Positions 1 through 21,109 of a DNA stretch of 22,378 bases are shown one piece after another. Positions within the stretch are counted from its first letter, which is position 1. Each line of letters starts with the position of its first letter. A program made the translations under genes and the position numbers. Below the pieces are notes generated by a model, which had not been told where the DNA came from, did not search any database, and was given only the letters and a program-made list of their open reading frames with translations. Source of the DNA: a virus (lineage: Duplodnaviria > Heunggongvirae > Uroviricota > Caudoviricetes); the IMG/VR virus record IMGVR_UViG_2721755651_000013. One strand, given 5' to 3'.

Positions 1-126
1 ATGTCTGCACCTGCATTGCCTGATGTCAGAACAGTATTTTGATTAATTGCCAGGGTTACAATGGCACAAATGCGGCACAGGAGGAAACGTGGTGTATTTA
101 AATATGGGGTAACTACTTGATTTAAA

Positions 127-142
127 TGGTGCGATAATAGGA
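127..142. repeat. Putative left att direct repeat of the P4-like element (tggtgcgataatagga; imperfect copy of the tRNA-Thr 3'-end core found at 13013..13030)
   Basis: 16-nt stretch matches tggtgccgataatagga at 13013..13029 except for one missing c, in the same orientation; spacing of about 12.9 kb fits a P4-like satellite. Short and imperfect, so tentative. Confidence 0.3.
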
Positions 143-1764: not shown

Positions 1765-4098
1765 TTATTTCGCTGCAAACTCATCGCATTTTGGCAACCA
1801 GTCAGCATTGCTTTCCTCTCTTAGGGCCAGATTAGTCTGCATTCCTTGATTGGTCCGTCGTTTCTCATACTGCAGCCCATATTCCTTGAGCATTAACGGT
1901 AGCCCCTTGCCAAACATGGTCAGACTGAGCGTATTTTTATAGCCGTTAGCCTCCATGTAGACCAGATAGGCATGGTAGAGGTAAGTTCGAGGCTGACGTG
2001 GAACAATATTAGCGTTCCCCATAAACATGCCCGTGGTGTCAGGTAGGACCTCAAGGTAGCCGCAAAAATCAAAAGCTGAATCAGCATCACGTTTGATGGT
2101 GAGCGCTTCATCGGAGTTCTGCTGTGACTGAAGCAATGTCCTGGCACTCATTGGGTCGCTGAAACGCTGCATAAGCTGGCGAACAATCACCGCTAGCTCA
2201 CTGGCAATTTTCTCTTTGAGCTGGGTATCGCGTTCCTCCGGGGCTATCTGGTCGGGGAAATGCAGGATCACCCTTCGGCGTGAAACTCCACCACTACGAT
2301 CAGTGAAGCGCATCGGATTATTGTTCACAGCCAGGATGACCGCCGGGATGTGGGTTGAATAGGCGTTCTGATATTTGGGATCAACGGATACCGCATCGCC
2401 GCCAGTGATGGCTTTTAGTCCGGCCCCGTCACCGCTCCACTTTTCCTGGTCGGGAAGTCGAATCAGTGAAAAACCTATTAACGCAGCTCGTTCTCTTGGC
2501 GACTCAAGCATTTCAATGGTTGCCGAGGTCGCGTTATCTTCACCCGCCAGCATGGTTGCTATTTCAGCAAGAATACTCTTTCCACTTCCGCCAGGGCCAG
2601 TGACCTCCAGAAACAGCTGCCAGTCATAACGGTTAGCCAGCACCATAAACAATGCAGCCAGAATAATGTCCCGTTTTTCAGGATTAAAACCTGCGGCACG
2701 ATCCAGCCAGCGCCAGAATGCCGGGGCATGGGTTTCCAGTGACTCACCGTCAACGGGCTGCGTGTAATCCACCTCGCACAGCGTACGTAACCAGTGCTTC
2801 TTATCGTGCGGGCTGAACAATCCTGTCCGGGTATCGAGCACACCGTTGCGAAATCCGATAAGTTGCCGCGCCGGATTCTGCTGTTGCGGAACGATCAGTT
2901 TGAGGGTTTCCACGAGAGACGCAATTTTCGCGGATGAAAAAGGTGCGTCGAGGCGCTGAAACAGCGCAGCGACATCACGGGCAAAATCGGCGTAATAGAT
3001 AACTTTCCAGGCCCCCGCCTCATAGCGTGAAAGGAGCTGCCCGTTCGGGTCTACTGCCAGTGAATTTTTATAGTGATCCACTACCCTCTGCGCTTTTTCG
3101 CTGACGCTCAGCGCGGTAAATTCAGCTTCGCTCATTGTGTCGAAGGGGCTGGCAACAGCTGGTTTTATTACTTCATGAATTGCATGCCGGGTGGCTTCTT
3201 CGCCGTTTTGCGTGAATGCATCGTTCCAGTCACCAAACACAGGCGGGAGCGCCATTGTGCAATTGCAGGCCCCGGTAACAGCTGCGCCCCTTGTTTGCCC
3301 CGCACCGTTGAGATCGCGGTCAGCAGCAATAATTATCTGGTGCGTTGGGTACTCACTGCAGGCAATGCTCGCCAGGGAAAGGAAATTGACGGACGAAAAG
3401 GCCACCATGACAGCATCGCCAGTCAGATAGTTGATAGTAAGTGCGGTGGCATATCCTTCCGCTATCCAGAGCCGTTTGGCTGCTTTGGCAGTACCTTCAA
3501 CCAGGTAAAAGGCATTCTTAACCTGACCGCCTTTAAGGAAGCATTTGCCCCCATTAGCGTTGATTAACTGCAGATTTACCAGCTCTCCATCTGCATACAA
3601 TGGAACGACAAGATCTCCCGCGCGAAATGCCACACCACCGACTTTATGCATAGCGGTTAATTCCCGGCAAGGCAGTGCAGGAAACCCTTTACTCGTCAGA
3701 TAGGCATTGCCAGTGGTCTGGCGGGACTTATCAAACAAACGGGCAGCCAGCACTGCTGCAGCTTTTCTCCCGTCCTCTTTTTCAGGAGAACCAGATTCAA
3801 GCATTCCCTGAGATACTGGCAGCAGGTTTCCGATAATGCCGTTTATTCTGTCTGCCGCTTCACTAATGCCTACATCCAGTACTTTACTTACAAGCGCCAG
3901 GCCATCACCTGCCCCGCACTGGTTACAGAACCACGTTCCCCGCCCTTCCTGGTCATCAAATCGAAAGCGGTCTTTCCCGGCACAGACCGGGCAGGGCTGG
4001 TGCCGATTTTTCAGTACATTTACGCCCAGCGCAGGTAAAATTCTTGACCAGTGACCCCGAGCTGCTTTCTCAGCCTGGCTAACTTTCATTCCTGACAT
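1765..4098 (-). CDS. P4 alpha-type bifunctional primase/helicase (zinc-binding primase domain + TOPRIM + D5-type NTPase)
   Basis: Protein has CPVCAGKDRFRFDD...FCNQCG zinc motif, Walker A GPGGSGKS, and overall P4 alpha-like layout. Start moved to the ATG at 4096..4098 because AAGGAGG lies 8 nt upstream; this gives 777 aa. The ORF-track start at 4155 is probably an upstream extension. Confidence 0.9.
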   Translation of the reverse strand: MSGMKVSQAEKAARGHWSRILPALGVNVLKNRHQPCPVCAGKDRFRFDDQEGRGTWFCNQCGAGDGLALVSKVLDVGISEAADRINGIIGNLLPVSQGMLESGSPEKEDGRKAAAVLAARLFDKSRQTTGNAYLTSKGFPALPCRELTAMHKVGGVAFRAGDLVVPLYADGELVNLQLINANGGKCFLKGGQVKNAFYLVEGTAKAAKRLWIAEGYATALTINYLTGDAVMVAFSSVNFLSLASIACSEYPTHQIIIAADRDLNGAGQTRGAAVTGACNCTMALPPVFGDWNDAFTQNGEEATRHAIHEVIKPAVASPFDTMSEAEFTALSVSEKAQRVVDHYKNSLAVDPNGQLLSRYEAGAWKVIYYADFARDVAALFQRLDAPFSSAKIASLVETLKLIVPQQQNPARQLIGFRNGVLDTRTGLFSPHDKKHWLRTLCEVDYTQPVDGESLETHAPAFWRWLDRAAGFNPEKRDIILAALFMVLANRYDWQLFLEVTGPGGSGKSILAEIATMLAGEDNATSATIEMLESPRERAALIGFSLIRLPDQEKWSGDGAGLKAITGGDAVSVDPKYQNAYSTHIPAVILAVNNNPMRFTDRSGGVSRRRVILHFPDQIAPEERDTQLKEKIASELAVIVRQLMQRFSDPMSARTLLQSQQNSDEALTIKRDADSAFDFCGYLEVLPDTTGMFMGNANIVPRQPRTYLYHAYLVYMEANGYKNTLSLTMFGKGLPLMLKEYGLQYEKRRTNQGMQTNLALREESNADWLPKCDEFAAK

Positions 4099-4656: not shown

Positions 4657-5206
4657 AGCGTCACCTCCCCGGCAGGCAGCCGTGCAGAAAGGGAGAGTAC
4701 ATAATCTCGGACTAGCAAACGGCGCGCGGAACGCTCATCGCAGGAGACAGTGCGAAGCATACAGATGCGGGGGTGAGTGTCAGCACGGCGGATTGCGGCA
4801 AACACAAAGACATATTGCGGGTGTGACGGGGTGAGGATTGTAGCCATGATGGCAGCCTCCAATAAGTAGCGGTTATTGCTACCACCGGAAACGCCAATTT
4901 CACTGGTGGCAGCCCGAACGGGGTTGGCGTAACCGGCCTTATTGGAAACCGGCCAGCCCGAAGGCTGCCCCGCCCGGACTACCATTATCTCGATAGAACC
5001 ATGGTGTAAGCATAAACACCACAGCCCTGAAAATGGTTGTGCCTGAGCTACGACGTAAAAAAAGACGCAAGGGGCGTCAATTGTCGCCAATAAGTTATAC
5101 GGAACGCCAATTCCGGCTGCCGATTTTGCGACAGCGGAAAAACTATACCTGGAAATGACGACAGTAAGCAAGCCAGAATAAAGGTATTTAATGTATGCAG
5201 GTATCA

Positions 5207-6400: not shown

Positions 6401-7153
6401 ATGACAATCCCAGAACAGAACAATAACCCGATCGTTGAAATTTCTATCCCTGTTTCGACGCAACAGGCGCTTGAGAAAGTGAATGCCACCAAATCTGCAT
6501 GGCTTGAAGCACGTCGTCAGCAAAAAGCGGCAGCGGATAATATTGCGACAATCCGCCAGCGCCGCGCTGAAATGGAAGCCACGACGAACGCCCTGAATGA
6601 GGAGTGGCGCACGCTATTTCGTGAAAGTCAGGGCGTAGTCTCAAAGGAAATGAAAAAACTGCGCACGGAAATTGCGCTGGGACGAGAAACGCTTGAGGAT
6701 TTTGATGAGCTGCTGGCGGCTCAGGAAAGCGAAAATGCACTTTTGCCGCAGGAGGCTGCGGAATTAGCCGGAAAGTATATCCACGCGCACGACACCCTTG
6801 TGGGTATTCGCGCAAAACAAATCTGGGAAGATTTTATGCAGTCGCATGGAAAAGCACTAATCCAGACACTAAGCCTGCTCAAATCAACAATGGGCAGGGA
6901 AGCCAGCGCAGTTGTCGGTGTGGTGCATTCAGTTAATGACCCGGACACACTGCTGAAAGATTTTATTCATAAACATATCACCAGACCGGCTCTGACTAAC
7001 GATGCGATGCCCGAACAGGACCCCGTGTTTAAACTGGCGGGAGTTGCCCCGGATTATGCGGCCCGTCTGGATTTCAGTAATAAACTCTCTCCAGCAGCTA
7101 TGCATAAAATGAAGGTTCGTCAGGAACGTGCTGAGAAGGAGAAAGCAGTATGA
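6401..7153 (+). CDS. sid: Sid-like capsid size-determination (external scaffold) protein
   Basis: 250 aa (P4 Sid is about 244 aa); first gene after the late promoter; shares the AWL...DFMQ.HG.AL motif with the next ORF, consistent with Sid and Psu being related; AGGTG Shine-Dalgarno. Confidence 0.65.
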   Translation: MTIPEQNNNPIVEISIPVSTQQALEKVNATKSAWLEARRQQKAAADNIATIRQRRAEMEATTNALNEEWRTLFRESQGVVSKEMKKLRTEIALGRETLEDFDELLAAQESENALLPQEAAELAGKYIHAHDTLVGIRAKQIWEDFMQSHGKALIQTLSLLKSTMGREASAVVGVVHSVNDPDTLLKDFIHKHITRPALTNDAMPEQDPVFKLAGVAPDYAARLDFSNKLSPAAMHKMKVRQERAEKEKAV

Positions 7154-7701
7154 TGGCCCGAGTCACTCCAGACCAAGCGCTTATCAGTTTTAGAAATGCC
7201 CGTATTCTGTGGGCTGGACATAGTGAGAGCCGAAAAGCCGTTGAACAACAGATAGAATCACTCCTCACTGCCATGGAAAAACCAGCAGATTATGCTCGAC
7301 AGCTCGAATTACAGCGGGAACATCTGGATGTGCTGAAATGGCAAATTAACTGTGCTGCGCGCGAATGCATTTACTCGCAGCATCAACTGATGGAGGCCTG
7401 CACAGAAGACGCTCTCAGCAATTTTATGCAGGCGAATGGAGCAGCCCTGACATCTGCACTGGCTCCGTTCCTGAAGGGGCGCGGAGGGGTTGACGTTGCG
7501 TCCCGTATATTACGCAATGCTCTGGTTCGCCAGCTGGCAATAACACCGCCTGAAATTGCCGGGGATTATCGTATGATTCTGGATGAATCCGGTGTGATGC
7601 CTGACCCCATGATGGTTCGTGATTGCCAGAGCTCTTACACCCCTGCACAACAACTGCGCTTTCAGCAACGTCTGGATTACATTAACGGCATGCAGGAGTA
7701 A
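7150..7701 (+). CDS. psu: Psu-like polarity suppression / capsid decoration protein
   Basis: 183 aa (P4 Psu about 190 aa); FMQANGAALTSALAPFL and a C-terminal TPAQQ segment resemble what I recall of P4 Psu; ATGA start/stop overlap with sid. Confidence 0.7.
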   Translation: MMARVTPDQALISFRNARILWAGHSESRKAVEQQIESLLTAMEKPADYARQLELQREHLDVLKWQINCAARECIYSQHQLMEACTEDALSNFMQANGAALTSALAPFLKGRGGVDVASRILRNALVRQLAITPPEIAGDYRMILDESGVMPDPMMVRDCQSSYTPAQQLRFQQRLDYINGMQE

Positions 7702-7706
7702 TATTA

Positions 7707-7979
7707 ATGGCACTTAAATGTCCCGAATGCGGTACGACGGCACACGCCAGAACCTCCGCCTATGAAGCACCATCGGTTAAACGCTCATGGTATCAGTGCC
7801 AGAATCTTGAATGTTCCTACACATTTACCGCACTGGAAAGTGTGGATACGATAATCATGAAGCCCCGGCGCAATGAACAGGAATCAGAGAAAGCACAAAT
7901 GCCGGAAAAACAACAGCAAACTCTCAATCGCTATGGCTCCGCGTCAAAGCTGTCAAGCCGTCAGCAAATTCCTGTCTGA
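7707..7979 (+). CDS. delta: Delta/Ogr-family zinc-finger late transcriptional activator
   Basis: N-terminus CPECGTTAHARTS...YQCQNLECSYTF is the C2-C2 Ogr/Delta zinc-finger signature; GGAG Shine-Dalgarno 7 nt upstream. Confidence 0.85.
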   Translation: MALKCPECGTTAHARTSAYEAPSVKRSWYQCQNLECSYTFTALESVDTIIMKPRRNEQESEKAQMPEKQQQTLNRYGSASKLSSRQQIPV

Positions 7980-8388: not shown

Positions 8389-8955
8389 TTAAACAGGATA
8401 AAAACCAGAGCTTCCATTCTTATTTAAGTTATGGATTTTATTTGCATCATTAATTTTTATTTGGAACGTCGGACCTTTATTCTCAAGAATTACAATCTGG
8501 AAATTATAGTCCCTTTTGATTAATGCGTGATAAAATGAATCACTGAGACTGACGCTATTAACATCCGATAGAGAACCCCCTCTATCTTTATCAAAGTGCG
8601 TCACTAATGGACTATCAAGCACAACAAATCCAATGAATGGATTCCCTTTTCTTGATAAAAATTCCGCAAAGCAAATGGTAAATATAGCATGCATTACTGC
8701 ACGGGTACCTTTACCAAACATTCCTCGGCGTTTCCCATTGATATTAAAGTCATATGTATCTTCGTCAAATCGCACTTTGTTATCTTTAGAATTTTCAAAA
8801 TTTATATCATTCAAAAAGTCTTGCATCGCTATTTCTATATCATACAAATCAGCTACTGTTAAGGAGTCAAAGTCCTCGGCGGAGTATTTAAGTTCGTCAA
8901 CATCATCTTCTTTATCTTGTAATGAAGATAGAATGCTATGTTTTGTGTGATCCAT
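8389..8955 (-). CDS. C-terminal ABC/SMC-type ATPase head segment (putative Walker B/D-loop region) of the cargo ATPase
   Basis: 188 aa; GMFGKGTRAVMHAIF (signature-like) followed by NPFIGFVVLDSPLVTHFD (hydrophobic strand + Asp, Walker-B-like); TAATG stop/start overlap with the upstream ORF; no Shine-Dalgarno; reading frame is open about 20 codons upstream of the ATG. Confidence 0.5.
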   Translation of the reverse strand: MDHTKHSILSSLQDKEDDVDELKYSAEDFDSLTVADLYDIEIAMQDFLNDINFENSKDNKVRFDEDTYDFNINGKRRGMFGKGTRAVMHAIFTICFAEFLSRKGNPFIGFVVLDSPLVTHFDKDRGGSLSDVNSVSLSDSFYHALIKRDYNFQIVILENKGPTFQIKINDANKIHNLNKNGSSGFYPV

Positions 8956-9545
8956 TAAAAGATTGTCTTTATATTCATAAAGTGATTCAAGAGATGAATG
9001 TATTGTTTTATATTTTTATCTTCTAACGTCTTAAAATCACTTTTTTCTGATTGATAAATTTCATTAACATCATTTTTTCTTAACATAATTAATTCATGTT
9101 CGCGAACATTAGATCCGATTGATTCAATTAATCCTTTCAGCTGGCTTTTGATTTTCAATTTTTCTGCATTACACGACAAAAAACAATCATCATATGATAT
9201 TTCATTTTCTTTTTTTTGCGGTGTATTACAGAACTCACAATAAATATCTGCAAAATTATTTAAATAGAAATTCGCCTGTGATACAACATCTATTCTTTGT
9301 AGATCTATAAAGTATTGGTCTTTAAGAAGACTAAATCTTTCAATGAGTAATGATAAGTATTTTTCCCTGTCACTGATTGAATATAATTCATCACTTAACT
9401 CTTTTAATAATTGCTTCTTATCATCAAGTGCATCAACAATACCTTTCAATATATCTTTCGATGATTCAATATCTTGCTCTACTTTCTCAAGTTCTCTTGA
9501 AACAATGACTTGATCATATTCAGGATAAATTAATTGCGCTTTCAA
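8955..9545 (-). CDS. Coiled-coil segment of the cargo SMC-like ATPase (no canonical start; same frame as the upstream ORF, separated by one TAA)
   Basis: 196 aa, highly charged (E/K/D/L-rich) helical heptad-like sequence; ORF-track start is TTG with no usable Shine-Dalgarno spacing; in frame with 9576..10208. Confidence 0.45.
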   Translation of the reverse strand: MKAQLIYPEYDQVIVSRELEKVEQDIESSKDILKGIVDALDDKKQLLKELSDELYSISDREKYLSLLIERFSLLKDQYFIDLQRIDVVSQANFYLNNFADIYCEFCNTPQKKENEISYDDCFLSCNAEKLKIKSQLKGLIESIGSNVREHELIMLRKNDVNEIYQSEKSDFKTLEDKNIKQYIHLLNHFMNIKTIF

Positions 9546-9575
9546 TTCCTCATAAATATTTGCAATTTGATTTTT

Positions 9576-10208
9576 TTAAAAATATCTTGCTTTTTTATTT
9601 GGTTTTTCTGCTAAGGAGTTAGTATCATCTCTCTGAGTTAAAAGGAATTTAAATTCAGACTTTCTTTTTGTCTCCTCGCTAGGAATATCAGAAAGAATTA
9701 ACGACTTCTCAGTTAACACTCTTAATTCATCAATACAAAAAAATTCAAAAACATTATTAAGATTAAATTTATGAAGAGTATTACTTAAGTTTGTTCTTAC
9801 TTTAGCCTCTTTGAAATTCAACCTACCATAAAAGTATGATGAAAAACTCTTTTTAGACGAAGCACTTTTGGAAAAAACCATCAACAGATTAGCTTCACTA
9901 ACATTTTCAATGCTCGAATCATATAATCTGTAATGGGCGCTATCCTGAAGAGACCTCTCAATTGTCATTACCCTACCTTGAAAATTAAATTCCAGATAGG
10001 CTAAATCATAACCTTGAGCATGATCGATATCTTTATTTTTTAGTTTTTCACTCCCTAATAAATATCGAATCAAATAATATATGTATGTTTTTCCAGAGTC
10101 AGAACCACCATATAAAATAGTCAATTTAGAACCAAATTCAATTATAGCATCTAATTTATTGAATCCGGTTACCTTTATTTTTCTGAACGTAAAAAAATTG
10201 TCATTCAT
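9576..10208 (-). CDS. N-terminal ABC/SMC-type ATPase head with Walker A (GGSDSGKT)
   Basis: MNDNFFTFRKIKVTGFNKLDAIIEFGSKLTILYGGSDSGKTYIYYL is the canonical N-terminal strand plus P-loop layout of RecF/SbcC/SMC-like ABC ATPases; start moved to the ATG at 10206..10208, which overlaps the upstream stop (ATGAATGA). Confidence 0.65.
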   Translation of the reverse strand: MNDNFFTFRKIKVTGFNKLDAIIEFGSKLTILYGGSDSGKTYIYYLIRYLLGSEKLKNKDIDHAQGYDLAYLEFNFQGRVMTIERSLQDSAHYRLYDSSIENVSEANLLMVFSKSASSKKSFSSYFYGRLNFKEAKVRTNLSNTLHKFNLNNVFEFFCIDELRVLTEKSLILSDIPSEETKRKSEFKFLLTQRDDTNSLAEKPNKKARYF

Positions 10209-10659
10209 AATTAAATTCCATATCATATTTGCCAATTTTATTTTTTATAATTGATTGCAACTGCTCATCAGGAATATCACTATATAACTTAACCACCAAA
10301 TTTATATTATGCTCCATCTGCGCAACATATTCATTATGTAGAGAATTTGTAAATGCATATGTTTTTTCAGAAGCTTTATATACAAAACCACGATGTGTAT
10401 AAATTTTTGAGGCTAGTTCATAGCCTTGCAACAAAGCCAATGATTCTAAAACAATCTCTCGTTTTAGGGCTAACTGAGCATCTCTACGGGGTATTGGAGG
10501 ATGAAGACTAATCTCTTCAGGTAAAAAATCCTTAAGATTTACTAAAATAAAATCAAAACAAATAAGCCGTTCAAGGCTTAATGAAGAAGGATAAATAGCG
10601 ACGAGCACTTTCGCCATTCGACATGCCACTTCTAAACTTGAATTATAAATTCTAACCAT
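10201..10659 (-). CDS. Small alpha-helical protein, putative middle component (LmuC-like) of a three-component ATPase system
   Basis: 152 aa when started at the ATG at 10657..10659 (TAATG overlap with upstream stop, GGTGAG upstream); located between the nuclease-like ORFs and the ATPase, as in ABC-3C/Lamassu type II loci. Assigned by position and size only. Confidence 0.5.
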   Translation of the reverse strand: MVRIYNSSLEVACRMAKVLVAIYPSSLSLERLICFDFILVNLKDFLPEEISLHPPIPRRDAQLALKREIVLESLALLQGYELASKIYTHRGFVYKASEKTYAFTNSLHNEYVAQMEHNINLVVKLYSDIPDEQLQSIIKNKIGKYDMEFNYE

Positions 10660-11276
10660 TATCTCACCGTCCAAATTACTTCACCATCATTAACCAAATG
10701 ATGGCATATTCCTTTTTTATCATTTGCTTCACATATTTTTGATAGTACTGAATGTGCAATTGGTGTCAGAACAGCCTGCTTCAAGACTGCATTACACCTA
10801 ATAAATGCATAATTATGGTCTTCATAAAAGACGGGTTCAATTGAAGATGAAATGTAACATTTCAATGCTTTGAATACATCATCTTTAAATACTTCGCGGA
10901 CAAAAACCTCAAGCGAAGATGCAAAATAAAAATCATTTCTACTATTATTAAAGTGTCGTCTGTATGGATCATCAAGCTCTAAGAAAGAACTATAAGTTTT
11001 ATTTCCATGCTCTGAATAGGCTTGAAGCAGTGCATTAACATATACAGACTCTTTTTTTGAATTGTATGTTGGAATTTCATTTGGAGGGATTCTCACGACA
11101 TACAGCTCGTTAAAGTACTTAAAATAAAGGTGTGTATTTGCAATATCATTTAAAATCAATGATAAGGGTAGAGAGTAAAAAATACTAAAATCAAAATCCT
11201 CAATATATTTTTTTATTTCATCATCTAATGGAATATCAATCTTTTTAGTTATTTTTTTGAAATTGCTGAATCCCAT
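10659..11276 (-). CDS. Hypothetical protein; probably the C-terminal part of the effector, reachable by a -1 shift from 11249..11665
   Basis: 205 aa; only one Met (the start) and no Shine-Dalgarno; overlaps the upstream ORF by 28 nt in the -1 frame across an A7 tract. Confidence 0.5.
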   Translation of the reverse strand: MGFSNFKKITKKIDIPLDDEIKKYIEDFDFSIFYSLPLSLILNDIANTHLYFKYFNELYVVRIPPNEIPTYNSKKESVYVNALLQAYSEHGNKTYSSFLELDDPYRRHFNNSRNDFYFASSLEVFVREVFKDDVFKALKCYISSSIEPVFYEDHNYAFIRCNAVLKQAVLTPIAHSVLSKICEANDKKGICHHLVNDGEVIWTVR

Positions 11277-11665
11277 GAATCAAGGACTGCTTTTTTAAGC
11301 TCGTTTTTATTTTTCAATAAATTAGAAAATGTAGTAGATAAATCATAGGGTGCCACAAAAAAGTACTTCTGAGGGATGGGATAATCACCATTCAGAGTAA
11401 AATAGATAAGTTTTCCAAACTCAACTACAACATCAGAGAACCCTAAACTTTTTTTGTACAGTTTGCATTGATAATTATCCCAAGAATAACCTTCTACGTT
11501 AGGATCCGATTTATATCCAACAACGTCTCTACCTTTATCTCCAGCTCCTCCCAAACGTTCGCTCCACGGGTAATCATCTGATTTACAGACAATAAGCCAA
11601 TCATGGACAAATACCTCCCATTGTTCATCATCCCATGTCAATATTTCCGAAAGTGGTTGAGACAC
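11249..11665 (-). CDS. Mrr-like PD-(D/E)xK nuclease domain protein (putative effector N-terminal domain)
   Basis: 138 aa; WEVFVHDWL...GGAGDKGRDVVGY...YQCKLY matches the E ... G-D-x-G-x-D ... Q-x-K pattern of Mrr-type restriction-endonuclease catalytic domains; GTG start with AAGGAG 7 nt upstream, embedded in the 3' end of int. Confidence 0.6.
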   Translation of the reverse strand: MSQPLSEILTWDDEQWEVFVHDWLIVCKSDDYPWSERLGGAGDKGRDVVGYKSDPNVEGYSWDNYQCKLYKKSLGFSDVVVEFGKLIYFTLNGDYPIPQKYFFVAPYDLSTTFSNLLKNKNELKKAVLDSWDSAISKK

Positions 11666-11668
11666 AAA

Positions 11669-12850
11669 TTAACTCCTTTTTAGTCTTTCAAATATCAAAT
11701 TACTGTACCAGTCCATCATAGACTTCCTTCCACTAAAATATTGAGCATGGTTATAAGTCCCCCTAATAGAATTTTTATCTACATGAGCCAACTGGATTTC
11801 AATCCAAGCACTCTCAAAACCTTGCTCATGCAGGATTGTAGAAAGGGTATGACGAAAACCATGTCCAGTGACTTTTCCTCCATACCCAATACGCTTAATG
11901 GCTTGATTTATACTCGCTTCGCTCATTGGCCTATTCGGATCGTTCCGCCCTGGAAAAACATAACGATAGTTCCCTGTCATGATCTTGAGTTCATTGAGTA
12001 AATCTACCGCTTGAGATGATAAGGGCACAAGATGTGGCCTACGCATTTTCATCCTTTCAGCAGGAATTTCCCAAATAGCGTTATCCAGATCAAATTCTTG
12101 CCATAATGCCGCGCGTAATTCGATGGTTCTCACACCCGTAATCATCAGTAATTTCGTGGCTATCTGGACAAGCTTACTCCCGGAGTAACCCTCTAAGGCA
12201 CGTAGAAAATCAGGTATCTCATCAGCTTTTAGGAATGGGAAATGATTGGATTGGTGTACTTCGAGAGCGCTGGAGAGATCAGCCGCAGGATTGTACTCCG
12301 CCCTACCCGTTGCAATTGCGTAGCGAAACACTTCGGAGCAACGCTGCCGCACTTTGCGCATTTTCTCCAACGCACCACGTTTCTCAATTTTACGCAGAAC
12401 GTTCAGCAGCTCTAGCGGTTTAATCTCTCCCACAGGCCTTGTTCCGACATAAGGAAAAATGTCGTTCTTAAACGCTTCCATGATGTCTGATGCATATCCC
12501 GCCGACCATTTAGCAGATTTAAGTTGATGCCACTCTCTGGCTATCTTTTCGAAGGCGTTCTCTGACTCTGTTTGCATAGCTAGCTTTTGCTCTTTTCGAA
12601 CCTCACTAGGGTTCTTTCCTTCTGCCACAAGTTTTCGAGCTTCATCACGACGGGAACGAGCATCGGCAAGGGTGATCGTTGGGTAAACACCAAGCGAGAT
12701 CATTTTGGGTTTGCCGGCATAGCGATAGCGGAACCGCCAACTCTTGCTTCCATTAGGTTCTATAAGTAATGACAACCCTAGCCCATCTCCAAATGTATAG
12801 GCTTTAGCTTCAGGCTTAGCGCGGCGAATCTGCATATCGTTTAAAGGCAT
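11669..12850 (-). CDS. int: P4-type tyrosine integrase
   Basis: N-terminus MPLNDMQIRRAKPEAKAY...DGLGLSLLIEPNGSKSWRFRYR is the P4-integrase N-terminal signature; C-terminal HGFRHT...Y catalytic motifs; start moved to the ATG at 12848..12850 (393 aa); adjacent to a tRNA-derived att. Confidence 0.9.
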   Translation of the reverse strand: MPLNDMQIRRAKPEAKAYTFGDGLGLSLLIEPNGSKSWRFRYRYAGKPKMISLGVYPTITLADARSRRDEARKLVAEGKNPSEVRKEQKLAMQTESENAFEKIAREWHQLKSAKWSAGYASDIMEAFKNDIFPYVGTRPVGEIKPLELLNVLRKIEKRGALEKMRKVRQRCSEVFRYAIATGRAEYNPAADLSSALEVHQSNHFPFLKADEIPDFLRALEGYSGSKLVQIATKLLMITGVRTIELRAALWQEFDLDNAIWEIPAERMKMRRPHLVPLSSQAVDLLNELKIMTGNYRYVFPGRNDPNRPMSEASINQAIKRIGYGGKVTGHGFRHTLSTILHEQGFESAWIEIQLAHVDKNSIRGTYNHAQYFSGRKSMMDWYSNLIFERLKRS

Positions 12851-12897
12851 GTGTATAGGAATCCAGACCGAACAGGAACATATACACAATCCTATAC
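12851..12897. repeat. 10-bp inverted repeat GTGTATAGGA-N27-TCCTATACAC immediately upstream of int
   Basis: Exact inverted repeat seen directly, with a third TATACACA copy between; a likely int promoter/operator or arm-type site. Confidence 0.4.
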
Positions 12898-13012
12898 ACA
12901 TTCAGTACCGGATTCTACTGGATGGTTACGGACTACTATGGACTTAAAAGAATAAAAAATGTTATAAATCAGAGATTTTATGGACTAATACGGACGTTTG
13001 AGGAAGTTGAGA

Positions 13013-13058
13013 TGGTGCCGATAATAGGAGTCGAACCTACGACCTTCGCATTACGAAT
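13013..13058 (-). other. 3' 46 nt of a tRNA-Thr(CGU)-like gene (anticodon loop to CCA): att core of the P4-like element; the tRNA 5' half is absent
   Basis: Reverse complement reads ATTCGTAATGCGAAGGTCGTAGGTTCGACTCCTATTATCGGCACCA: T-arm GTAGG-TTCGACT-CCTAT, acceptor 3' strand, CCA; upstream sequence cannot pair as acceptor, D or anticodon-stem 5' strands. Confidence 0.6.
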
Positions 13059-13405
13059 TATAAGAATCCGCTTCTAATTCAAAGCATTACCCCATCAACA
13101 CTGCGCTCACACGTCCCACCACATCAAAACATGTAAAGCCTTGCAAGCCATTGCGAGGCCTTATGTGTCTCAGTTTTGTCCCACCTTGTATTACGACTTG
13201 CATAGCCAATGAAGATAAACGTGACGACAAACGGCGCAGCAGTCTTCTTTTCTTTCACGACTTCTCCAGCATGCATACCTTTCTGCCATGACTGAAGTGA
13301 ATGCCTGTTATGAGCAAGGATTGGCCCAGATGAATCGCCCTGGACTGTTGCGATCGTGAAGCCATAGACTGGGCCGCAAGCACGGGAGGTTACGATAAAG
13401 CGACA

Positions 13406-13771
13406 GTGCAGGATGTCATGTTAGGAGCGATAGAAAAACGCTTTGGCGATAAAGTACCGGAACAGTCCATCCAGTGGCTGACAGATAACGGTTCAGCGTA
13501 TAGAGCGCATGAAACACGGCAGTTCGCCAGAGAGTTGAATCTGGAGCCCTGCACAACGGCAATCAGCAGTCCTCAGAGTAATGGAATTGCAGAAAGGTTC
13601 GTGAAAACGATGAAGGAAGACTACATCGCGTTCATGCCGAAACCGAATGTAAGAACGGCATTGCATAATCTTGCAGTGGCGATCGAACATTACAATGAAA
13701 ACCATCCGCACAGTGCGTTGGGTTATCGCTCTCCGCGAGAATATCGACGTCAGCGGGTAACGTTAACTTAA
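13406..13771 (+). pseudogene. IS3-family (IS2-like) transposase OrfB C-terminal fragment
   Basis: 121-aa ORF ends ...[23 protein letters not shown]...[19 protein letters not shown], the typical C-terminus of IS3-family integrase-core transposases; the N-terminal part and OrfA are absent, so this is a remnant. Confidence 0.65.
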
Positions 13772-13812
13772 GATACCCCCCCTGTCTGGAAATAAGGGGG
13801 CAAGAACAATGA

Positions 13813-14556
13813 TCAGATTCCCTGGTGAGTAAGAATTTTACTTTCTGAACTCCTCTGAGAGTATTGACTTGGAGAAACACCAAAATAACGTCTAAATACA
13901 TAAGTAAAGTATGAGACACTGGCATAACCACAGACCTTAGCTACTTTACTAATAGGATAACAACGAGTGCTGAGTAAATATTCAGCCATTTGCATCCTCT
14001 CATCAAGTATGATCTTACTGAATGATACCCCCTCTTCTTTCAATTTCCTCTTTAGTAAACTTTCGCTGAGATATAATCTTGATGATATATCCTTAAGACG
14101 CCATGGTGCAGATAAATCCGTATGAATAATCGTTTTAACTTTAGCCCCTGTGCTTTTCAAACATCCAAACAGAAATACTCCAAATTGTTTTTCAGAAGAA
14201 AATGCAGAGAGACATGTAAAAGCAATAGACTCATCAAAAATTTCTATGTATTCAGCACAGTGATTAGCCCAACTAATTAATCCTTTAATTAAACTGAAGT
14301 CAGCAAAGTTTATTTTTAAATAAGATGGATATTCCCTACAATCAGAAATATCCCTTAAGTTATTAGCTTTCAAATAGCGACTAATAAACTCAGCGCCAAA
14401 ATCCGCCACTATCACTCTTTCAGGATATGTCAGGAAAAAATCTCTAGAGCTAGAGTCGACAAGTACAGATGAACCTCTCTCCAGAAACACACTCTCTTTT
14501 CCGAAATAAACATCAAAGGACTCCAAAATCAATATAACTGAACATGTAGTTGCCAT
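13813..14556 (-). CDS. AraC/XylS-family transcriptional regulator (Rns/AggR/GadX-like size and layout)
   Basis: 247 aa, AT-rich; C-terminal ISKVAKVCGYASVSYFTYVFRRYFGVSPSQY is the second helix-turn-helix of the AraC family. Confidence 0.8.
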   Translation of the reverse strand: MATTCSVILILESFDVYFGKESVFLERGSSVLVDSSSRDFFLTYPERVIVADFGAEFISRYLKANNLRDISDCREYPSYLKINFADFSLIKGLISWANHCAEYIEIFDESIAFTCLSAFSSEKQFGVFLFGCLKSTGAKVKTIIHTDLSAPWRLKDISSRLYLSESLLKRKLKEEGVSFSKIILDERMQMAEYLLSTRCYPISKVAKVCGYASVSYFTYVFRRYFGVSPSQYSQRSSESKILTHQGI

Positions 14557-15138
14557 ATCATCCCCCCAATTTAACTGAAACCAGGATGAAGTATATGTAT
14601 ATAAAGTTCACTTTGCCAAACTTCAGTATAAAAAACCACTAAAAATAGGGTGTGATAAAAAATACCGTAACAATAAAGCAAAGGATTATAAATTCCGTTA
14701 CAGTTACAAATGATACTCAAGAAACAATTCCTTAGGAAAAACTTATTTACAGCCAATAAGTAAGACACTTATATGATATCAAGTTTTCATAAAACATAAC
14801 TAGGCTAAATAGCTGCGCCTAATACCGCTACACTTTTGCCAGCCCATGTTTGCCTCCGGGTATTGACCCCTTCTCTACGCAACTTCAGTTCCCACCACCA
14901 ACTTTGCGGCAGCTTTGTAGGATCAATGTCTAAAAGAATAATGGTGACCGATAAGAAAACGACTGAATAACTGCAGATTTTCGCTCAAAACCTTCCTGTC
15001 AGATCCATAGCGAATCAAGTGCTGAATGTCACAGTATCGAACAGAAAACAGTGACGATCTAACCCTTCAAGAATATTCTACGATTGTTCTGTTTAGGAAA
15101 AGCAAGACGGGAAGTCGGGAGATAAGTCATTGATAAAG

Positions 15139-15200
15139 TGGCGGAGAGAGGGGGATTTGAACCCCCGGTAGAGTTGCCCCTACTCCGGTTTTCGAGACCG
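15139..15200 (-). other. 3' 62 nt of a tRNA-Ser(CGA) (serU-like) gene, anticodon loop to CCA; att-type partial tRNA
   Basis: Reverse complement reads CGGTCTCGAAAACCGGAGTAGGGGCAACTCTACCGGGGGTTCAAATCCCCCTCTCTCCGCCA: long variable arm, T-arm GGGGG-TTCAAAT-CCCCC, CCA end; the 5' half is not present. Confidence 0.6.
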
Positions 15201-15432
15201 ACCCGATCATCAAACGAAACATAAAATTAGCTCACATTATGAGGAAAGGTATCTTTTTGCGCTATGTAAATTCAAAGGGTTAGCCTCATTTTCCCGATGG
15301 CTTTCTCAACACTACTAGTTGTGAGCCCTTGCAATGTTCATTAATATACGTCTCACAAATAATTCACAGATATTGCAAAATGGATATTACTGAACCGCCC
15401 CGGGTTTCCTGGAGAGTGTTTTATCTGTGAAC

Positions 15433-16319
15433 TCAGGCTGCCAGATCATCGTTTCCGATGGAAGCATAATAAGCTTTTTCTGCTTCTGCCGGAGGAGTAT
15501 GGCCCAGCCTTCCCAGCAATCGTCGATTGTTATACCAGTCCACCCACGTTAGTGTGGCCAGTTCCACTTCTGCACGGTTTTTCCAGCTCTTACGGTGTAT
15601 TACCTCCGCTTTGTAAAGACCATTGATGCTCTCAGCCATCGCGTTGTCATACGAGTCGCCTGTACTCCCTGTTGATGCCAGTAATCCGGCTTCTTTTAGT
15701 CGCTCCGTATAGGCCAGTGACACATACTGAGAGCCTTTATCGCTGTGATGGATGGTGCCAGACGGACGACGGGCCCACAACGCCTGCTCCAGCGCATCCA
15801 GCACGAATGTCGTTTCCATAGACGATGAGACCCGCCACCCCACGATGTATCCGGCAAACACATCAATGATAAACGCCACATAGACGAAGCCCTGCCATGT
15901 GCTGACGTAAGTAAAATCAGCCACCCACAGCTGGTCAGGTCGTTCTGCCACGAACTGACGGTTTACGCGGTCGCCTGCGGCAACGGCTTTCCGGCTGATG
16001 GTCGTACGGACCTTTTTACCCCGGAGAACACCGGCAAGTCCCATAACCGCCATGAGACGTGCCACTGTACATCTGGCCACCCTGATTCCTTCCCGTAACA
16101 ACTGACGCCAGACTTTACGCACACCGTACACCTGATGATTTTCATCGTATACGCGCTGTATCTCTCTCTTCAGCCAGTCGTCGTGCTGCGCACGGGCACT
16201 GCGTTTATCCGGATGATGTCGCTGTTGCTGACAATGGTAATACGTTGACGGGGCAATATGCAGTTCGCTGCATACCGGTCCGACCCCGTACTGCTCACGC
16301 AGCTTATCCAGCAGTGGCA

Positions 16320-16323
<4 letters not shown>
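15433..16323 (-). CDS. IS3-family transposase OrfB (DDE integrase core)
   Basis: 296 aa with the characteristic IS3 OrfB layout; overlaps orfA in the -1 frame across an A6 tract (TGGAAAAAATGATG), the usual frameshift window. Confidence 0.9.
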
Positions 16324-17466
<1,143 letters not shown>

Positions 17467-17523
17467 ATCTTCAAGTGGTAAGCATAAACCGCAGCACGAT
17501 CTTGCATACGACGTGCTACGGTT

Positions 17524-18078
17524 TCATTTATCTCCGGCCGGAAACTTCTTATACAGTGTCGATACACCAACATCATAGATGATCGCTACCTTCTGGCGAG
17601 GAATTCCTGCTGCAATTAATCGTCCGGCCTGCGCCCATTGTTCTGGTGTAAGTTTGGGACGACGTCCACCAATTCGTCCCTGTGCGCGAGCAGCTTCCAG
17701 TCCAGCTTTTGTTCGTTCAACAATCAGTTCTCGTTCCATTTCAGCCAGGGCCCCCATCACATGAAAGAAAAAGCGCCCCATTGGGGTACTGGTATCAATA
17801 GCATCCGTCAGGCTGCGAAAATTAACGCCACGTTCGCGCAACTCCTCAACCAGAATGACCAGATGCCGCATACTGCGCCCCAGCCGATCCAGTTTCCAGA
17901 CAACCAGAGTGTCACCTGCCGATAATGTCCTGAGCAGTTTTTTCAGTCCCGGCCTTTCGGACTTTGTACCGCTTATCTTGTCTTCAAAAATCAGCTCGCA
18001 TCCTGCACAGTTCAGCGCATTACGTTGTAGATCTGTGTTCTGGTCATTTGTTGACACACGTACATAGCCAATAAGCAT
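17524..18078 (-). CDS. pin: Serine-recombinase DNA invertase of the Pin/Gin/Hin/Cin family
   Basis: MLIGYVRVSTNDQNTDLQRNAL... with catalytic Ser and C-terminal HTH; matches what I recall of e14 Pin; 184 aa when started at the ATG at 18076..18078. Confidence 0.9.
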   Translation of the reverse strand: MLIGYVRVSTNDQNTDLQRNALNCAGCELIFEDKISGTKSERPGLKKLLRTLSAGDTLVVWKLDRLGRSMRHLVILVEELRERGVNFRSLTDAIDTSTPMGRFFFHVMGALAEMERELIVERTKAGLEAARAQGRIGGRRPKLTPEQWAQAGRLIAAGIPRQKVAIIYDVGVSTLYKKFPAGDK

Positions 18079-18104
18079 GGTAGATCTCCCTGACAAAAGC
18101 AGGA

Positions 18105-18602
18105 ATGATGCCATTTGCTCGTTATTTCTGCATTTTCATAAACGTTGGTTTGGGAGAAGGTGCTCCAGCTATTGGCGTTCCGTTCTTCTGGCCGTCCGCT
18201 GCAATGCCAAATACTGTAATCGACAGCTGGTCCTGTATGGTGTTTTTGAAGTTCAACGGCGCGAAATTCTCTGCCACTGATTATCCTGTGCTGGCGAAAG
18301 TGTTTCCTTCGCTGGTATTACCTGAAGCCCGCGGTGATTTCATTCGTATCTGGGATGACGGGCGAGGTGCAGACGGTGGTCGCGAATTATTAAGCTGGCA
18401 GGCAGCTACAAACTTTTCTCAGTTTGCCGGGAATATAGGCGAAGGTGCGGGACACGCAATTAACTTTCATGATGGCATCGCCGGAAATCAGCCAGGATTT
18501 TCACGATTTAATTTCACCAGTAACTCTGTGGGTGATGGTGTGAATTTTGTTGCAGTCAGACCGCGAAATATTGCATTTAACTTTCTGGTGAGGGCTAAAT
18601 AA
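18105..18602 (+). CDS. Tail-fibre C-terminal variable segment (Sv/StfE'-like gene segment inside an invertible region)
   Basis: ...KFSATDYPVLAKVFPSLVLPEARGDFIRIWDDGRGADGGR...NIAFNFLVRAK is the conserved tail-fibre tip motif of Mu S / e14 Stf / T4 gp37-type fibres; no own promoter or start expected for a gene segment. Confidence 0.65.
   Translation: MMPFARYFCIFINVGLGEGAPAIGVPFFWPSAAMPNTVIDSWSCMVFLKFNGAKFSATDYPVLAKVFPSLVLPEARGDFIRIWDDGRGADGGRELLSWQAATNFSQFAGNIGEGAGHAINFHDGIAGNQPGFSRFNFTSNSVGDGVNFVAVRPRNIAFNFLVRAK
18133..18158. other. Putative invertase crossover site (gix/hix/pix-like), TTTTCATAAACGTTGGTTTGGGAGAA
   Basis: 26-bp imperfect dyad with half-sites ending AAAC / GTTT around a central dinucleotide, adjacent to the pin start, resembling hix/gix sites as I recall them. 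Confidence 0.4.
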
Positions 18603-19195
18603 TGAAACCTGTTTTTGATGAAAATGGGCTGGCTACAGTGCCGGGCGATATGCGTTGTTTTTATTATGATGCTGAAACATCTGAGTATACGGGCTGGTCT
18701 GATGAATATATTAATACTGGCGTAAGTATGCCCGCCTGTTCCACTGGTATTGACCCTGGCGAAAACATTCCGGGAAGAGTGGCAGTATTTACAGGTAAGG
18801 GATGGAGCCATGAAGAAGACCATCGCAATGAGACTGTTTACTCAATCGAAAATGGCGCAGCTGTTACAGTGGATTATATCGGTGCCATCAAAGACGGTTA
18901 TGTCACGATTTCACCGTTAACGCCATACGATAAATGGGATGGTGAGAAATGGGTGACAGACACTGAGGCACAACACAGTGCCGCAGTAGACGCGGCAGAA
19001 GCACAGCGCCAATCACTGATTGATGCAGCAATGGCTTCCATTAGTCTGATTCAGCTGAAGTTACAGGCCGGACGGAAACTGACTCAGGCAGAAACAACCC
19101 GACTTAACGCCGTGCTGGATTACATTGACGCGGTGACGGCAACAGATACCAGCACCGCGCCGGATGTCATCTGGCCTGAACTGCCGGAGGCGTAG
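18602..19195 (+). CDS. tfa: Tail fibre assembly protein (Tfa/U-like)
   Basis: 197 aa, TAATG coupling to the fibre segment; C-terminal ...LDYIDAV...DTS.APDVIWPELP motif typical of Tfa chaperones. Confidence 0.75.
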   Translation: MKPVFDENGLATVPGDMRCFYYDAETSEYTGWSDEYINTGVSMPACSTGIDPGENIPGRVAVFTGKGWSHEEDHRNETVYSIENGAAVTVDYIGAIKDGYVTISPLTPYDKWDGEKWVTDTEAQHSAAVDAAEAQRQSLIDAAMASISLIQLKLQAGRKLTQAETTRLNAVLDYIDAVTATDTSTAPDVIWPELPEA

Positions 19196-19619
19196 GCCAT
19201 TCAATATCTGGCGCACCGGAAGTATCGACCAGCTCCAGTGCGTCCAGATAATCCAGCCACAAATTATATTGCGTCAGTTCGTCACCTTTCAGACGACCAA
19301 TAGCCGCTTTACCGGGCCATTGCTTACTGTTCATGTATTCGTTGGCCTGGTTAATTAGTAGCTGTCTTTCTGATTCAGTAATTTCAATAAGCTCTTCATG
19401 CGTGGGTGGAGGAATATCTGCCCACGCAGGCAGCCCATCATCTCCGGCAATACGGATTTTTCCTTGTGGCGGTTCAGCCATAAACTCACTGATAATATTT
19501 TGATTTACTTCCTTAGCGTCTGATAAATCCCATCCCTCTGATTTATATTTATCAATCATATCCACAGGGAAAAAAGCATTATGCCTTGCGCTATAAACAT
19601 ATTCGTCCATATAAATCAC
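19167..19619 (-). CDS. tfa: Alternative tail fibre assembly protein (Tfa'/U'-like) on the opposite strand
   Basis: 150 aa with the same C-terminal Tfa motif (LWLDYLDAL...DTSGAPDIEWPTPP), tail-to-tail with the other tfa as in invertible G/P segments; its partner fibre segment is missing (IS copy 2 starts at 19674). Confidence 0.65.
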   Translation of the reverse strand: MIYMDEYVYSARHNAFFPVDMIDKYKSEGWDLSDAKEVNQNIISEFMAEPPQGKIRIAGDDGLPAWADIPPPTHEELIEITESERQLLINQANEYMNSKQWPGKAAIGRLKGDELTQYNLWLDYLDALELVDTSGAPDIEWPTPPAVQAR

Positions 19620-19727
19620 CCTGAATAAAATTACTCACCAACAGCCCACCAACTGTAATTCATCGATACCGTGTGAACCGCCCCGGGTTTCCTGGAGACT
19701 AAACTCCCTGAGAAAGAGGTAAACAGG

Positions 19728-20054
19728 ATGACTAAAAATACTCGTTTTTCCCCCGAAGTCCGTCAGCGGGCGATTCGTATGGTTCTGGAAAGTCAGGATG
19801 AATATGACTCACAGTGGGCGGCAATTTGTTCCATTGCCCCAAAGATTGGCTGTACGCCGGAGACTCTGCGTGTCTGGGTTCGCCAGCATGAGCGGGATAC
19901 CGGGGGCGGTGATGGTGGGCTCACCAGCGCTGAACGTCAGCGTCTGAAAGAGCTGGAACGTGAAAATCGTGAACTGCGCCGCAGTAACGATATCCTTCGC
20001 CAGGCTTCCGCTTATTTTGCGAAGGCGGAGTTCGACCGCCTCTGGAAAAAATGA
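19728..20054 (+). CDS. IS3-family transposase OrfA
   Basis: Identical 108-aa protein to 16320..16646. Confidence 0.9.
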
Positions 20055-20941
20055 TGCCACTGCTGGATAAGCTGCGTGAGCAGTACGGGGTCGGACCGGT
20101 ATGCAGCGAACTGCATATTGCCCCGTCAACGTATTACCATTGTCAGCAACAGCGACATCATCCGGATAAACGCAGTGCCCGTGCGCAGCACGACGACTGG
20201 CTGAAGAGAGAGATACAGCGCGTATACGATGAAAATCATCAGGTGTACGGTGTGCGTAAAGTCTGGCGTCAGTTGTTACGGGAAGGAATCAGGGTGGCCA
20301 GATGTACAGTGGCACGTCTCATGGCGGTTATGGGACTTGCCGGTGTTCTCCGGGGTAAAAAGGTCCGTACGACCATCAGCCGGAAAGCCGTTGCCGCAGG
20401 CGACCGCGTAAACCGTCAGTTCGTGGCAGAACGACCTGACCAGCTGTGGGTGGCTGATTTTACTTACGTCAGCACATGGCAGGGCTTCGTCTATGTGGCG
20501 TTTATCATTGATGTGTTTGCCGGATACATCGTGGGGTGGCGGGTCTCATCGTCTATGGAAACGACATTCGTGCTGGATGCGCTGGAGCAGGCGTTGTGGG
20601 CCCGTCGTCCGTCTGGCACCATCCATCACAGCGATAAAGGCTCTCAGTATGTGTCACTGGCCTATACGGAGCGACTAAAAGAAGCCGGATTACTGGCATC
20701 AACAGGGAGTACAGGCGACTCGTATGACAACGCGATGGCTGAGAGCATCAATGGTCTTTACAAAGCGGAGGTAATACACCGTAAGAGCTGGAAAAACCGT
20801 GCAGAAGTGGAACTGGCCACACTAACGTGGGTGGACTGGTATAACAATCGACGATTGCTGGGAAGGCTGGGCCATACTCCTCCGGCAGAAGCAGAAAAAG
20901 CTTATTATGCTTCCATCGGAAACGATGATCTGGCAGCCTGA
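20051..20941 (+). CDS. IS3-family transposase OrfB
   Basis: Identical 296-aa protein to 15433..16323. Confidence 0.9.
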
Positions 20942-21109
20942 GTTCACAGATAAAACACTCTCCAGGAAACCCGGGGCGGTTCATAACCAATTGTATTTAT
21001 TTTAAAATTAATAGGTGCAACTCACTAAACAACGCAATTCTGATCTCTCGATCACCTCCCAAGCCACACAACCCTGCAAAAAATAAATCTATATAAAAAA
21101 CATACAGAT

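Follow-up and report, generated by a model that had tools for sequence, protein, structure and literature searches.

In Escherichia coli O157:H7 strain Sakai, the prophages Sp1 and Sp2 are sited together at the tRNA gene thrW as a compound prophage (PMC8190617), the former described as a degraded remnant of lambdoid type and the latter as P4-like (PMC2669165). The Sp1 counterpart of strain EDL933, CP-933H, encodes Z0321, a putative RpoS-dependent regulator in O-island 8 (PMC2907692), which a later review names PatE and describes as an AraC/XylS-family activator of gadB, gadC, gadE and hdeAB that lowers LEE gene expression and shares its targets gadE and hdeA with PsrB (PMC10877973). Two other systems are close to the locus described here, namely the Shigella phages SfIV and SfV, which also integrate at thrW, and the lambda-bio transducing phages, in which a phage arm and an att core are followed by contiguous host DNA from the attR side. 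We analysed a stretch of 22,378 nucleotides (IMG/VR record IMGVR_UViG_2721755651_000013; hereafter, the window) that carries 3' fragments of two tRNA genes, thrW and serU, on either side of an AraC-family regulator gene that we assign to patE (z0321). We consider it highly probable that the window represents a thrW integration hot spot holding Sp1 and Sp2 in tandem, and that the serU fragment is a relic attR captured as phage cargo beside PatE.

Among 5426 complete genomes, the whole window was recovered as a single-piece match of 100% identity in O157 strain 319 only. Many E. coli O157:H7 genomes contain the segment at 12900-15300 with 100% identity, and at least 80% of it is present in one place in 333 of the 5426 genomes. 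The annotated locus reads, in order, proA, intact thrW, a degraded prophage (with integrase, cI, cro, cII, replication genes, tail fibres, pin and a GIY-YIG gene), the thrW fragment, a P4-like element and ykg-region genes. The Sp1 integrase gene terminates in the last codon of the window, and in L001, a comparison locus that bears Sp1, the intact thrW starts 15 nt after this stop codon, which argues that the window is, by its sequence, the native thrW locus of E. coli O157:H7, enlarged by two known elements in tandem. The original prediction held that this was not a native tRNA locus; the comparison with L001 overturns that view, as it places the intact gene just past the right end of the window.

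The first element, Sp1/CP-933H, is a contractile-tailed, SfIV/SfV-like prophage that has become degraded, and the second, Sp2/CP-933I, is a P4-like satellite. Both match Sp1/Sp2 of Sakai and CP-933H/CP-933I of EDL933 (O-island 8 region) in kind and in locus, with patE and its upstream DNA 100% identical in EDL933 (genome H205); compared with those versions, the window contains two copies of IS629 and lacks the Sp1 immunity and replication genes. With SfIV and SfV, Sp1 shares a 46-nt core, attP arms, a 99%-identical integrase and the placement of cargo between the tail genes and attP. The SfIV cargo, however, consists of gtr O-antigen modification genes, whereas that of Sp1 consists of the serU relic, PatE and remnants of insertion sequences (IS), and Sp1 has undergone extensive degradation. 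PatE, both prophages and their tandem insertion at thrW are already in the literature, and this architecture is ordinary. SfV-like prophages followed in tandem by a second integrase-bearing element also occur at thrW in unrelated strains, so the arrangement is recurrent.

Neither tRNA fragment is a functional gene: ARAGORN identified 0 tRNA genes in the window, and an Rfam scan of the window at E ≤ 1 returned no tRNA family. Both fragments lack the 5' acceptor strand, the D arm and part of the anticodon stem; they start in the anticodon stem, with tRNA similarity stopping abruptly at the 5' border, and are spaced 2080 bp apart (thrW to serU). The original prediction had placed two incomplete tRNA 3' ends (Thr and Ser) here, both on the minus strand and both running to CCA, with an IS remnant and an AT-rich AraC gene between them; these observations and their coordinates were accurate (46/46 identity to thrW and 62/62 to serU; rve_3 and rve in the IS remnant; HTH_AraC in the regulator).

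The thrW fragment begins at A31, where the 5' strand of the anticodon stem ends, and runs through CCA, with one further base after it, and the same 46 nt form the attP core of SfIV. To its right, the adjoining 125 bp (13059-13183) are 97.6% identical to the SfIV attP arm, and core and flank together are 97.6-98.3% identical to the SfIV attP region; positions 13124-13315 are 87.5% identical to sequence at ~26.7-27.2 kb in many lambda-like genomes and to phage 21 records that include the 2.9-kb M61865. The other SfIV attP arm (P') is found, almost base for base, downstream of intact thrW. To the left of the fragment there is no relation to SfIV, and a P4-type tyrosine integrase, transcribed away from the fragment, is reached after 111 nt. 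A decayed third copy of thrW, which comprises the last ~17 nt of the gene (one base deleted) and ~18 nt resembling thrW-downstream sequence, lies at 109-142 and is 91% identical over 35 nt to the intact thrW 3' end and downstream bases in L001 and L013 (local blastn). This copy surfaced solely with gapped alignment and blastn; an ungapped 25-mer search of the window with up to 3 mismatches returned the known copy at 13013-13058 and no third copy.

The locus has three sites: intact thrW with the Sp1 P' arm; the thrW fragment, with the Sp1 P arm, the 46-nt core and the Sp2 P' arm; and the distal site, with the Sp2 P arm, the ~17-nt core and chromosomal flank. An exact duplicate of the thrW 3' end, the intact gene at the far end of Sp1, a P4-type integrase beside the junction, an SfIV-type integrase beside the intact gene and a right arm homologous to the SfIV attP were all found, and we interpret the thrW fragment as an att core duplicated by integrase-mediated recombination that now forms the hybrid attR(Sp1)/attL(Sp2) junction. 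Either order of arrival of Sp1 and Sp2 yields the final structure. A 22-nt direct repeat (TAYACACAMYCCTATACACATT; 86% identity) is located just inside both Sp2 ends, at 203-224 and 12881-12902, and its copies may be arm-type integrase binding sites.

That the two fragments might be decayed native tRNA genes or chance similarities, rather than products of recombination, draws on nothing beyond the lack of complete genes. Identity is perfect over 46 and 62 nt, the 5' borders are abrupt, and a 25-nt probe from the thrW fragment has 1 occurrence in the window and 0 in 100 shuffles. The sharp borders coincide with known attP and attR sites, which refutes this explanation, and we give it practically no credence. 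The original prediction that both fragments are att cores is upheld, with tyrosine integrases as the enzymes that left them. Its further suggestion of stacked or nested elements holds for the thrW fragment, which lies within the Sp1/Sp2 tandem, but not for the serU fragment, which appears to be cargo.

The serU fragment has the composition of a relic attR, with a phage arm, a core and a host flank in succession. The tRNA-Ser pseudogene annotated at attR of prophage SerU-LTIIb, next to yodB, is also 62 nt long. Of the 5426 genomes, 5405 match the query at all, and in most of these the native serU-yodB spacer shares 96-99% identity with the 278 bp adjoining the core. This host homology ends at a TA dinucleotide (14861-14862) that abuts an IS630-family fragment, TA being the usual target of the IS630 family. 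A test query that joined yodB (K-12), flank, core and arm had a full-length match at native serU in four genomes, MB15 included. In MB15 an intact SfV-like prophage of ~39 kb has this junction as its right end and a complete serU and an integrase at the opposite end, and the window with IS629 removed is 95.8% identical to MB15 over 1431 bp, from the host flank into pin.

Formation of the serU junction at its present position is not borne out by gene content: a serU gene and a third integrase are absent from both the window and the 42-kb locus, and the window has no integrase of serU type. Taken together, these comparisons indicate that the serU fragment is a whole transplanted attR (phage arm, core and host flank), ~2 kb from thrW, with no element integrated here. 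The flank query finds a second place in O157 records, consistent with a retained native flank, and Sp14 occupies the native serU site between yodB and tRNA-Ser in O157 (PMC8190617), which indicates that the flank was copied, not moved.

Three further observations concern this region. At the serU fragment, Rfam gave weak, sub-threshold matches to tmRNA (15139-15204, minus strand) and to a plastid 3'UTR family (15142-15193, plus strand). Loci of TUM14664 and 2009C-3554 near 2.0 Mb that carry the GIY-YIG arm were first suspected to be serU and turned out to be thrW loci. SfV-like prophages at thrW in other strains keep the serU-type arm (L009 6981-7000 and L011 6981-7000, equivalent to window 15183-15202) and retain only ~19-22 nt of the serU anticodon stem-loop before diverging into unrelated cargo. 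The comparison suggests that the integration module once switched from serU to thrW, with the break at the likely crossover region.

The serU relic and patE belong to a block (13335-15201: IS3-family remnant, AraC gene, IS630 fragment, host flank and core) that recurs with 98.8-99.3% identity in three complete phage genomes, PhiR70_1, ev099 and mEp332, with homology beginning at the left end of the block. In ev099 the block is situated between side tail-fibre genes and an integrase-excisionase pair, and the mEp332 record has it close to the end, after the tail-fibre genes. Several strains also carry the block in prophages at bio/ybhB (the lambda attB site), where it sits at the right end of the prophage. 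In these phage and lambda-attB carriers, the core is joined to an arm 92-94% identical to the genuine attR arm of SerU-LTIIb, and not to the arm seen in the window. mEp332, a phage of the lambda immunity group with a lambda-bio-like genome, still forms plaques (PMC3442831). The IS remnant, labelled InsD in the phage records, was considered as IS2 and, with only 70% identity to IS2, was called IS3-family.

Large prophage-mediated rearrangements are well known in O157, and an inversion or translocation between Sp14 at serU and Sp1 at thrW within the O157 lineage could, in principle, have produced the serU junction with no phage carriage. O157 does have prophages at both loci (PMC8190617). The host flank, however, is only 278 bp long and ends at an IS630-family fragment, the flank query has its second place in O157 records, and a 99%-identical block exists in phage genomes and in lambda-attB prophages of unrelated strains. 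These observations largely refute the rearrangement, which we regard as very improbable.

From the observed identities, junctions, distribution and domain content, we infer the following mechanism of capture and order of events. An SfV-like or lambda-like phage would once have integrated at serU, and host DNA past attR would have entered a phage genome either by imprecise excision, with the geometry of lambda-bio, or by recombination in core-plus-flank homology. An IS630-family insertion would have ended the captured stretch. The relic would since have travelled with the AraC gene and the IS3-family remnant as one cargo block, which different phages carry between their tail-fibre genes and their present att-int module, and the original serU integration module would later have been replaced. 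Capture from the attR side of a serU prophage is favoured by the layout, which runs from the tail region through phage arm, core and host DNA to the att-int module. As in lambda-bio phages, the captured DNA has the tail/b region on one side of it on the phage map and the early-left region on the other. The present event differs from lambda-bio in being natural and old, with 278 bp of host DNA left and no host gene, and in that a lambda-type or thrW-type module would have taken the place of the original serU att-int module.

The captured attR (62-nt core and 278-bp flank) might also be more than an inert fossil and act as a mobile site of recombination through which the PatE cargo passes from one temperate phage to another, unrelated one, a possibility that we hold only tentatively and judge doubtful overall. 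Exchange of this kind could link lambda-like siphoviruses and SfV-like myoviruses, via serU-specific integrases or via homology with serU prophages. If true, it would explain how one cargo came to be joined, precisely at the border of the core, to two different genuine serU-phage arms, and why thrW-integrating SfV-like phages keep a serU-type arm with ~20 nt of core.

A related proposal is that the serU fragment is still usable, as a second attP that would give the phage two tRNA targets or as a secondary attB for serU-specific phages, with swapping of cargo. All 62 nt of the core are preserved and match serU without exception, the cargo joins two genuine serU-phage arms exactly at the core boundary, thrW SfV-like prophages keep the arm and the first ~20 nt of core, as if breaks cluster at the crossover, and O157 has a serU-specific prophage, Sp14 (PMC8190617). 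Yet the window encodes no serU-type integrase, and the carriers checked have a thrW-type integrase or are located at bio/ybhB. Moreover, an attP has no use for the 278-bp host flank, which passive capture explains best, homologous recombination across the 340-bp core-plus-flank would give the identical junction pattern, and no products of excision or integration were observed. On balance, continued use of the site appears unlikely, and we retain passive capture of the serU attR as phage cargo.

Several observations weigh against the combined interpretation of a thrW tandem and a captured serU relic beside PatE. Sp1 and Sp2 were not seen to circularise in strain Sakai (PMC2669165), so no activity of their att sites has been observed. 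In none of the non-O157 contexts inspected was patE found beside native serU; all of these contexts were prophage cargo (the bio/ybhB site or another prophage remnant). The same cargo is fused to two different genuine serU-phage arms, a pattern that needs either two captures from one donor chromosome or later exchange within the 340-bp core-plus-flank. The link to PatE is based on locus position, DNA identity to EDL933 and reviews, and a protein-cluster look-up names the product only 'AraC family'. We found no published mention of the serU relic or of host-flank capture in the literature searched, the coverage of which is incomplete; the capture of the host flank and its presence in lambdoid phages are apparently a modest new detail of a known type of event.

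The regulator itself has an AraC-type double helix-turn-helix domain, with scores above the cut-offs of the family models (60.7 bits for HTH_AraC, cut-off 26.6; 58.4 bits for HTH_18, cut-off 33.6). The whole protein can be aligned to the YdeO model, the closest curated one, and shares the AraC-type C-terminal DNA-binding domain with YdeO, GadX and the prophage regulators PsrA and PsrB, which are activators of the acid-fitness island. Its scores against the NCBIfam equivalogs, however, fall below the cut-offs (YdeO, 148 vs. 348 bits; GadX, 110 vs. 500), making it a paralogue distinct from YdeO and carried as phage cargo, not in the core genome. Among solved structures, that of the GadX DNA-binding domain is closest, and CsvR, Rns and ToxT come next. 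patE is present in 658 of the 5426 genomes and is the sole AraC-family gene in the Sp1/CP-933H locus. Given the EDL933 identity, the locus position and the published descriptions of this gene (PMC2907692, PMC10877973), the AraC gene is identified from its DNA as PatE, a moron-type regulator, with its regulatory function taken from the literature.

The GC content is 31-38% in patE and 27% upstream of it. A consensus scan showed one promoter-like site upstream (14619 to 14590), such sites being no commoner here than in shuffles, and no terminator that could insulate patE in 14861-15138. The expectation of a horizontally carried, Rns/GadX-like regulator agrees with the matches to YdeO, GadX and Rns and with the phage-borne block, and the expectation that its targets lie outside the window agrees with the published ones (gadE, gadBC, hdeAB and LEE genes; PMC10877973). 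The coordinates of all features are collected in Table 1.

Table 1. Features of the 22,378-nt window, in order of position, with the evidence for each.
Feature	Coordinates	Strand	Evidence
Distal att site of Sp2	109-142	-	decayed thrW copy; gapped alignment and blastn
P4 alpha-like primase-helicase	1765-4098	-	RefSeq annotation of identical locus; open reading frame list
P4-type immunity RNA region	4902-5148	-	Rfam
C4/CI antisense RNA	4902-4989	-	Rfam C4, 84 bits, above gathering score
isrK-like RNA	5058-5135	-	Rfam, 71.9 bits, above gathering score
a1/b1 target sites	5096-5148	-	Rfam c4-a1b1, 44.6 bits, just below gathering score
Sid-like, Psu and Ogr/Delta genes	6401-7979	+	RefSeq annotation of identical locus
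Variable cargo: hypothetical proteins, AAA ATPase, ABC-three-component-system genes	8389-11665	-	RefSeq annotation
P4-type tyrosine integrase of Sp2	11669-12901	-	Pfam Arm-DNA-bind_3, Phage_int_M, Phage_integrase
Integrase-proximal (P') arm of P4-like element	12902-13012		unrelated to SfIV P' arm
thrW 3' fragment (anticodon CGU), 46-nt att core, putative hybrid junction attR(Sp1)/attL(Sp2)	13013-13058	-	46/46 identity to thrW
Phage-side (P) arm of Sp1	13059-13334		SfIV attP and lambda-like matches
IS3-family (IS2-related) transposase remnant	13335-13812	+	Pfam rve_3, rve; annotated pseudogene without N-terminus
patE (z0321), AraC/XylS-family regulator, 247 residues	13813-14556	-	Pfam; DNA identity to EDL933
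AT-rich patE upstream region	14557-14805	-	27-32% GC
IS630-family end fragment, 55 bp	14806-14860		92.9% match to annotated IS630-family transposase region
Putative captured host DNA, 278 bp after serU toward yodB (B' arm)	14861-15138	-	homology to native serU-yodB spacer
serU 3' fragment (anticodon CGA), 62-nt att core of serU-integrating phages	15139-15200	-	62/62 identity, C29 to CCA
Phage-side arm of serU-type attR, leading into GIY-YIG gene of SfV/e14-like phage	15201-15390		contiguity at native serU
IS629/IS1203 copy 1	15391-16703	-	repeat search; Rfam ALIL frameshift element
Sp1 right-arm remnant: GIY-YIG gene, Pin invertase, tail-fibre/assembly genes	16753-19619		Pfam LEM-3_GIY-YIG; RefSeq annotation
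IS629 copy 2	19671-20983	+	repeat search; comparison with WS4202
Sp1 integrase, SfIV type, without N-terminal ~81 residues	21404-22378	+	protein comparison with SfIV Int

Sp2 has the gene content of a P4-like satellite (P4-type integrase, primase-helicase, C4 RNA, an Icd-like gene, Psu and Ogr/Delta); its integrase scores 320 bits against NCBIfam PRK09692, below the cut-off of 434. The isrK-like RNA overlaps the a1/b1 target-site model beside the C4/CI RNA, inside the Icd-like gene region (5058-5148, minus strand). Between ogr/delta and the integrase, the variable segment at 8389-11665 comprises two hypothetical genes, an AAA ATPase gene and two ABC-three-component-system genes; it looks like anti-phage defence cargo, and it adjoins the same integrase in strain 2009C-3554 too. 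In strain 54, a different ABC-three-component set adjoins the thrW fragment (L011 507-1707).

The remaining Sp1 integrase is identical to residues 82-387 of SfIV Int at 305 of 306 positions, and the right-arm remnant is colinear with intact SfV-like prophages. IS629 copy 1 is a simple insertion, with TAC on both sides; it is absent from strain WS4202 and breaks the serU-type phage arm at 15391. Copy 2 is inverted relative to copy 1, has no target duplication, and borders a deletion of the Sp1 cI, cro and replication genes and of the integrase N-terminus. The two near-identical inverted IS629/IS1203 copies enclose 2967 bp with the GIY-YIG gene, pin and the invertible tail-fibre segment, and this exact configuration was found in strain 319 only, among the 5426 genomes. 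At 17524-19619, the pin-adjacent tail-fibre segment is ordered unlike that of WS4202, with other open reading frames following pin, an arrangement consistent with Pin-mediated inversion or with inversion between the two IS629 copies.

The locus adds little new biology, and the gain is a clean anatomy of the Sp1/Sp2 junction. For annotation, it cautions that a partial tRNA inside a prophage need not mark integration at that place. The 340-bp serU-region repeat that results in O157 may provide a substrate for rearrangement with Sp14. For enterohaemorrhagic E. coli, these findings indicate that a regulator of acid resistance travels in lambdoid phages beside a piece of the host chromosome probably captured at serU, which would make the block a natural counterpart of lambda-bio.

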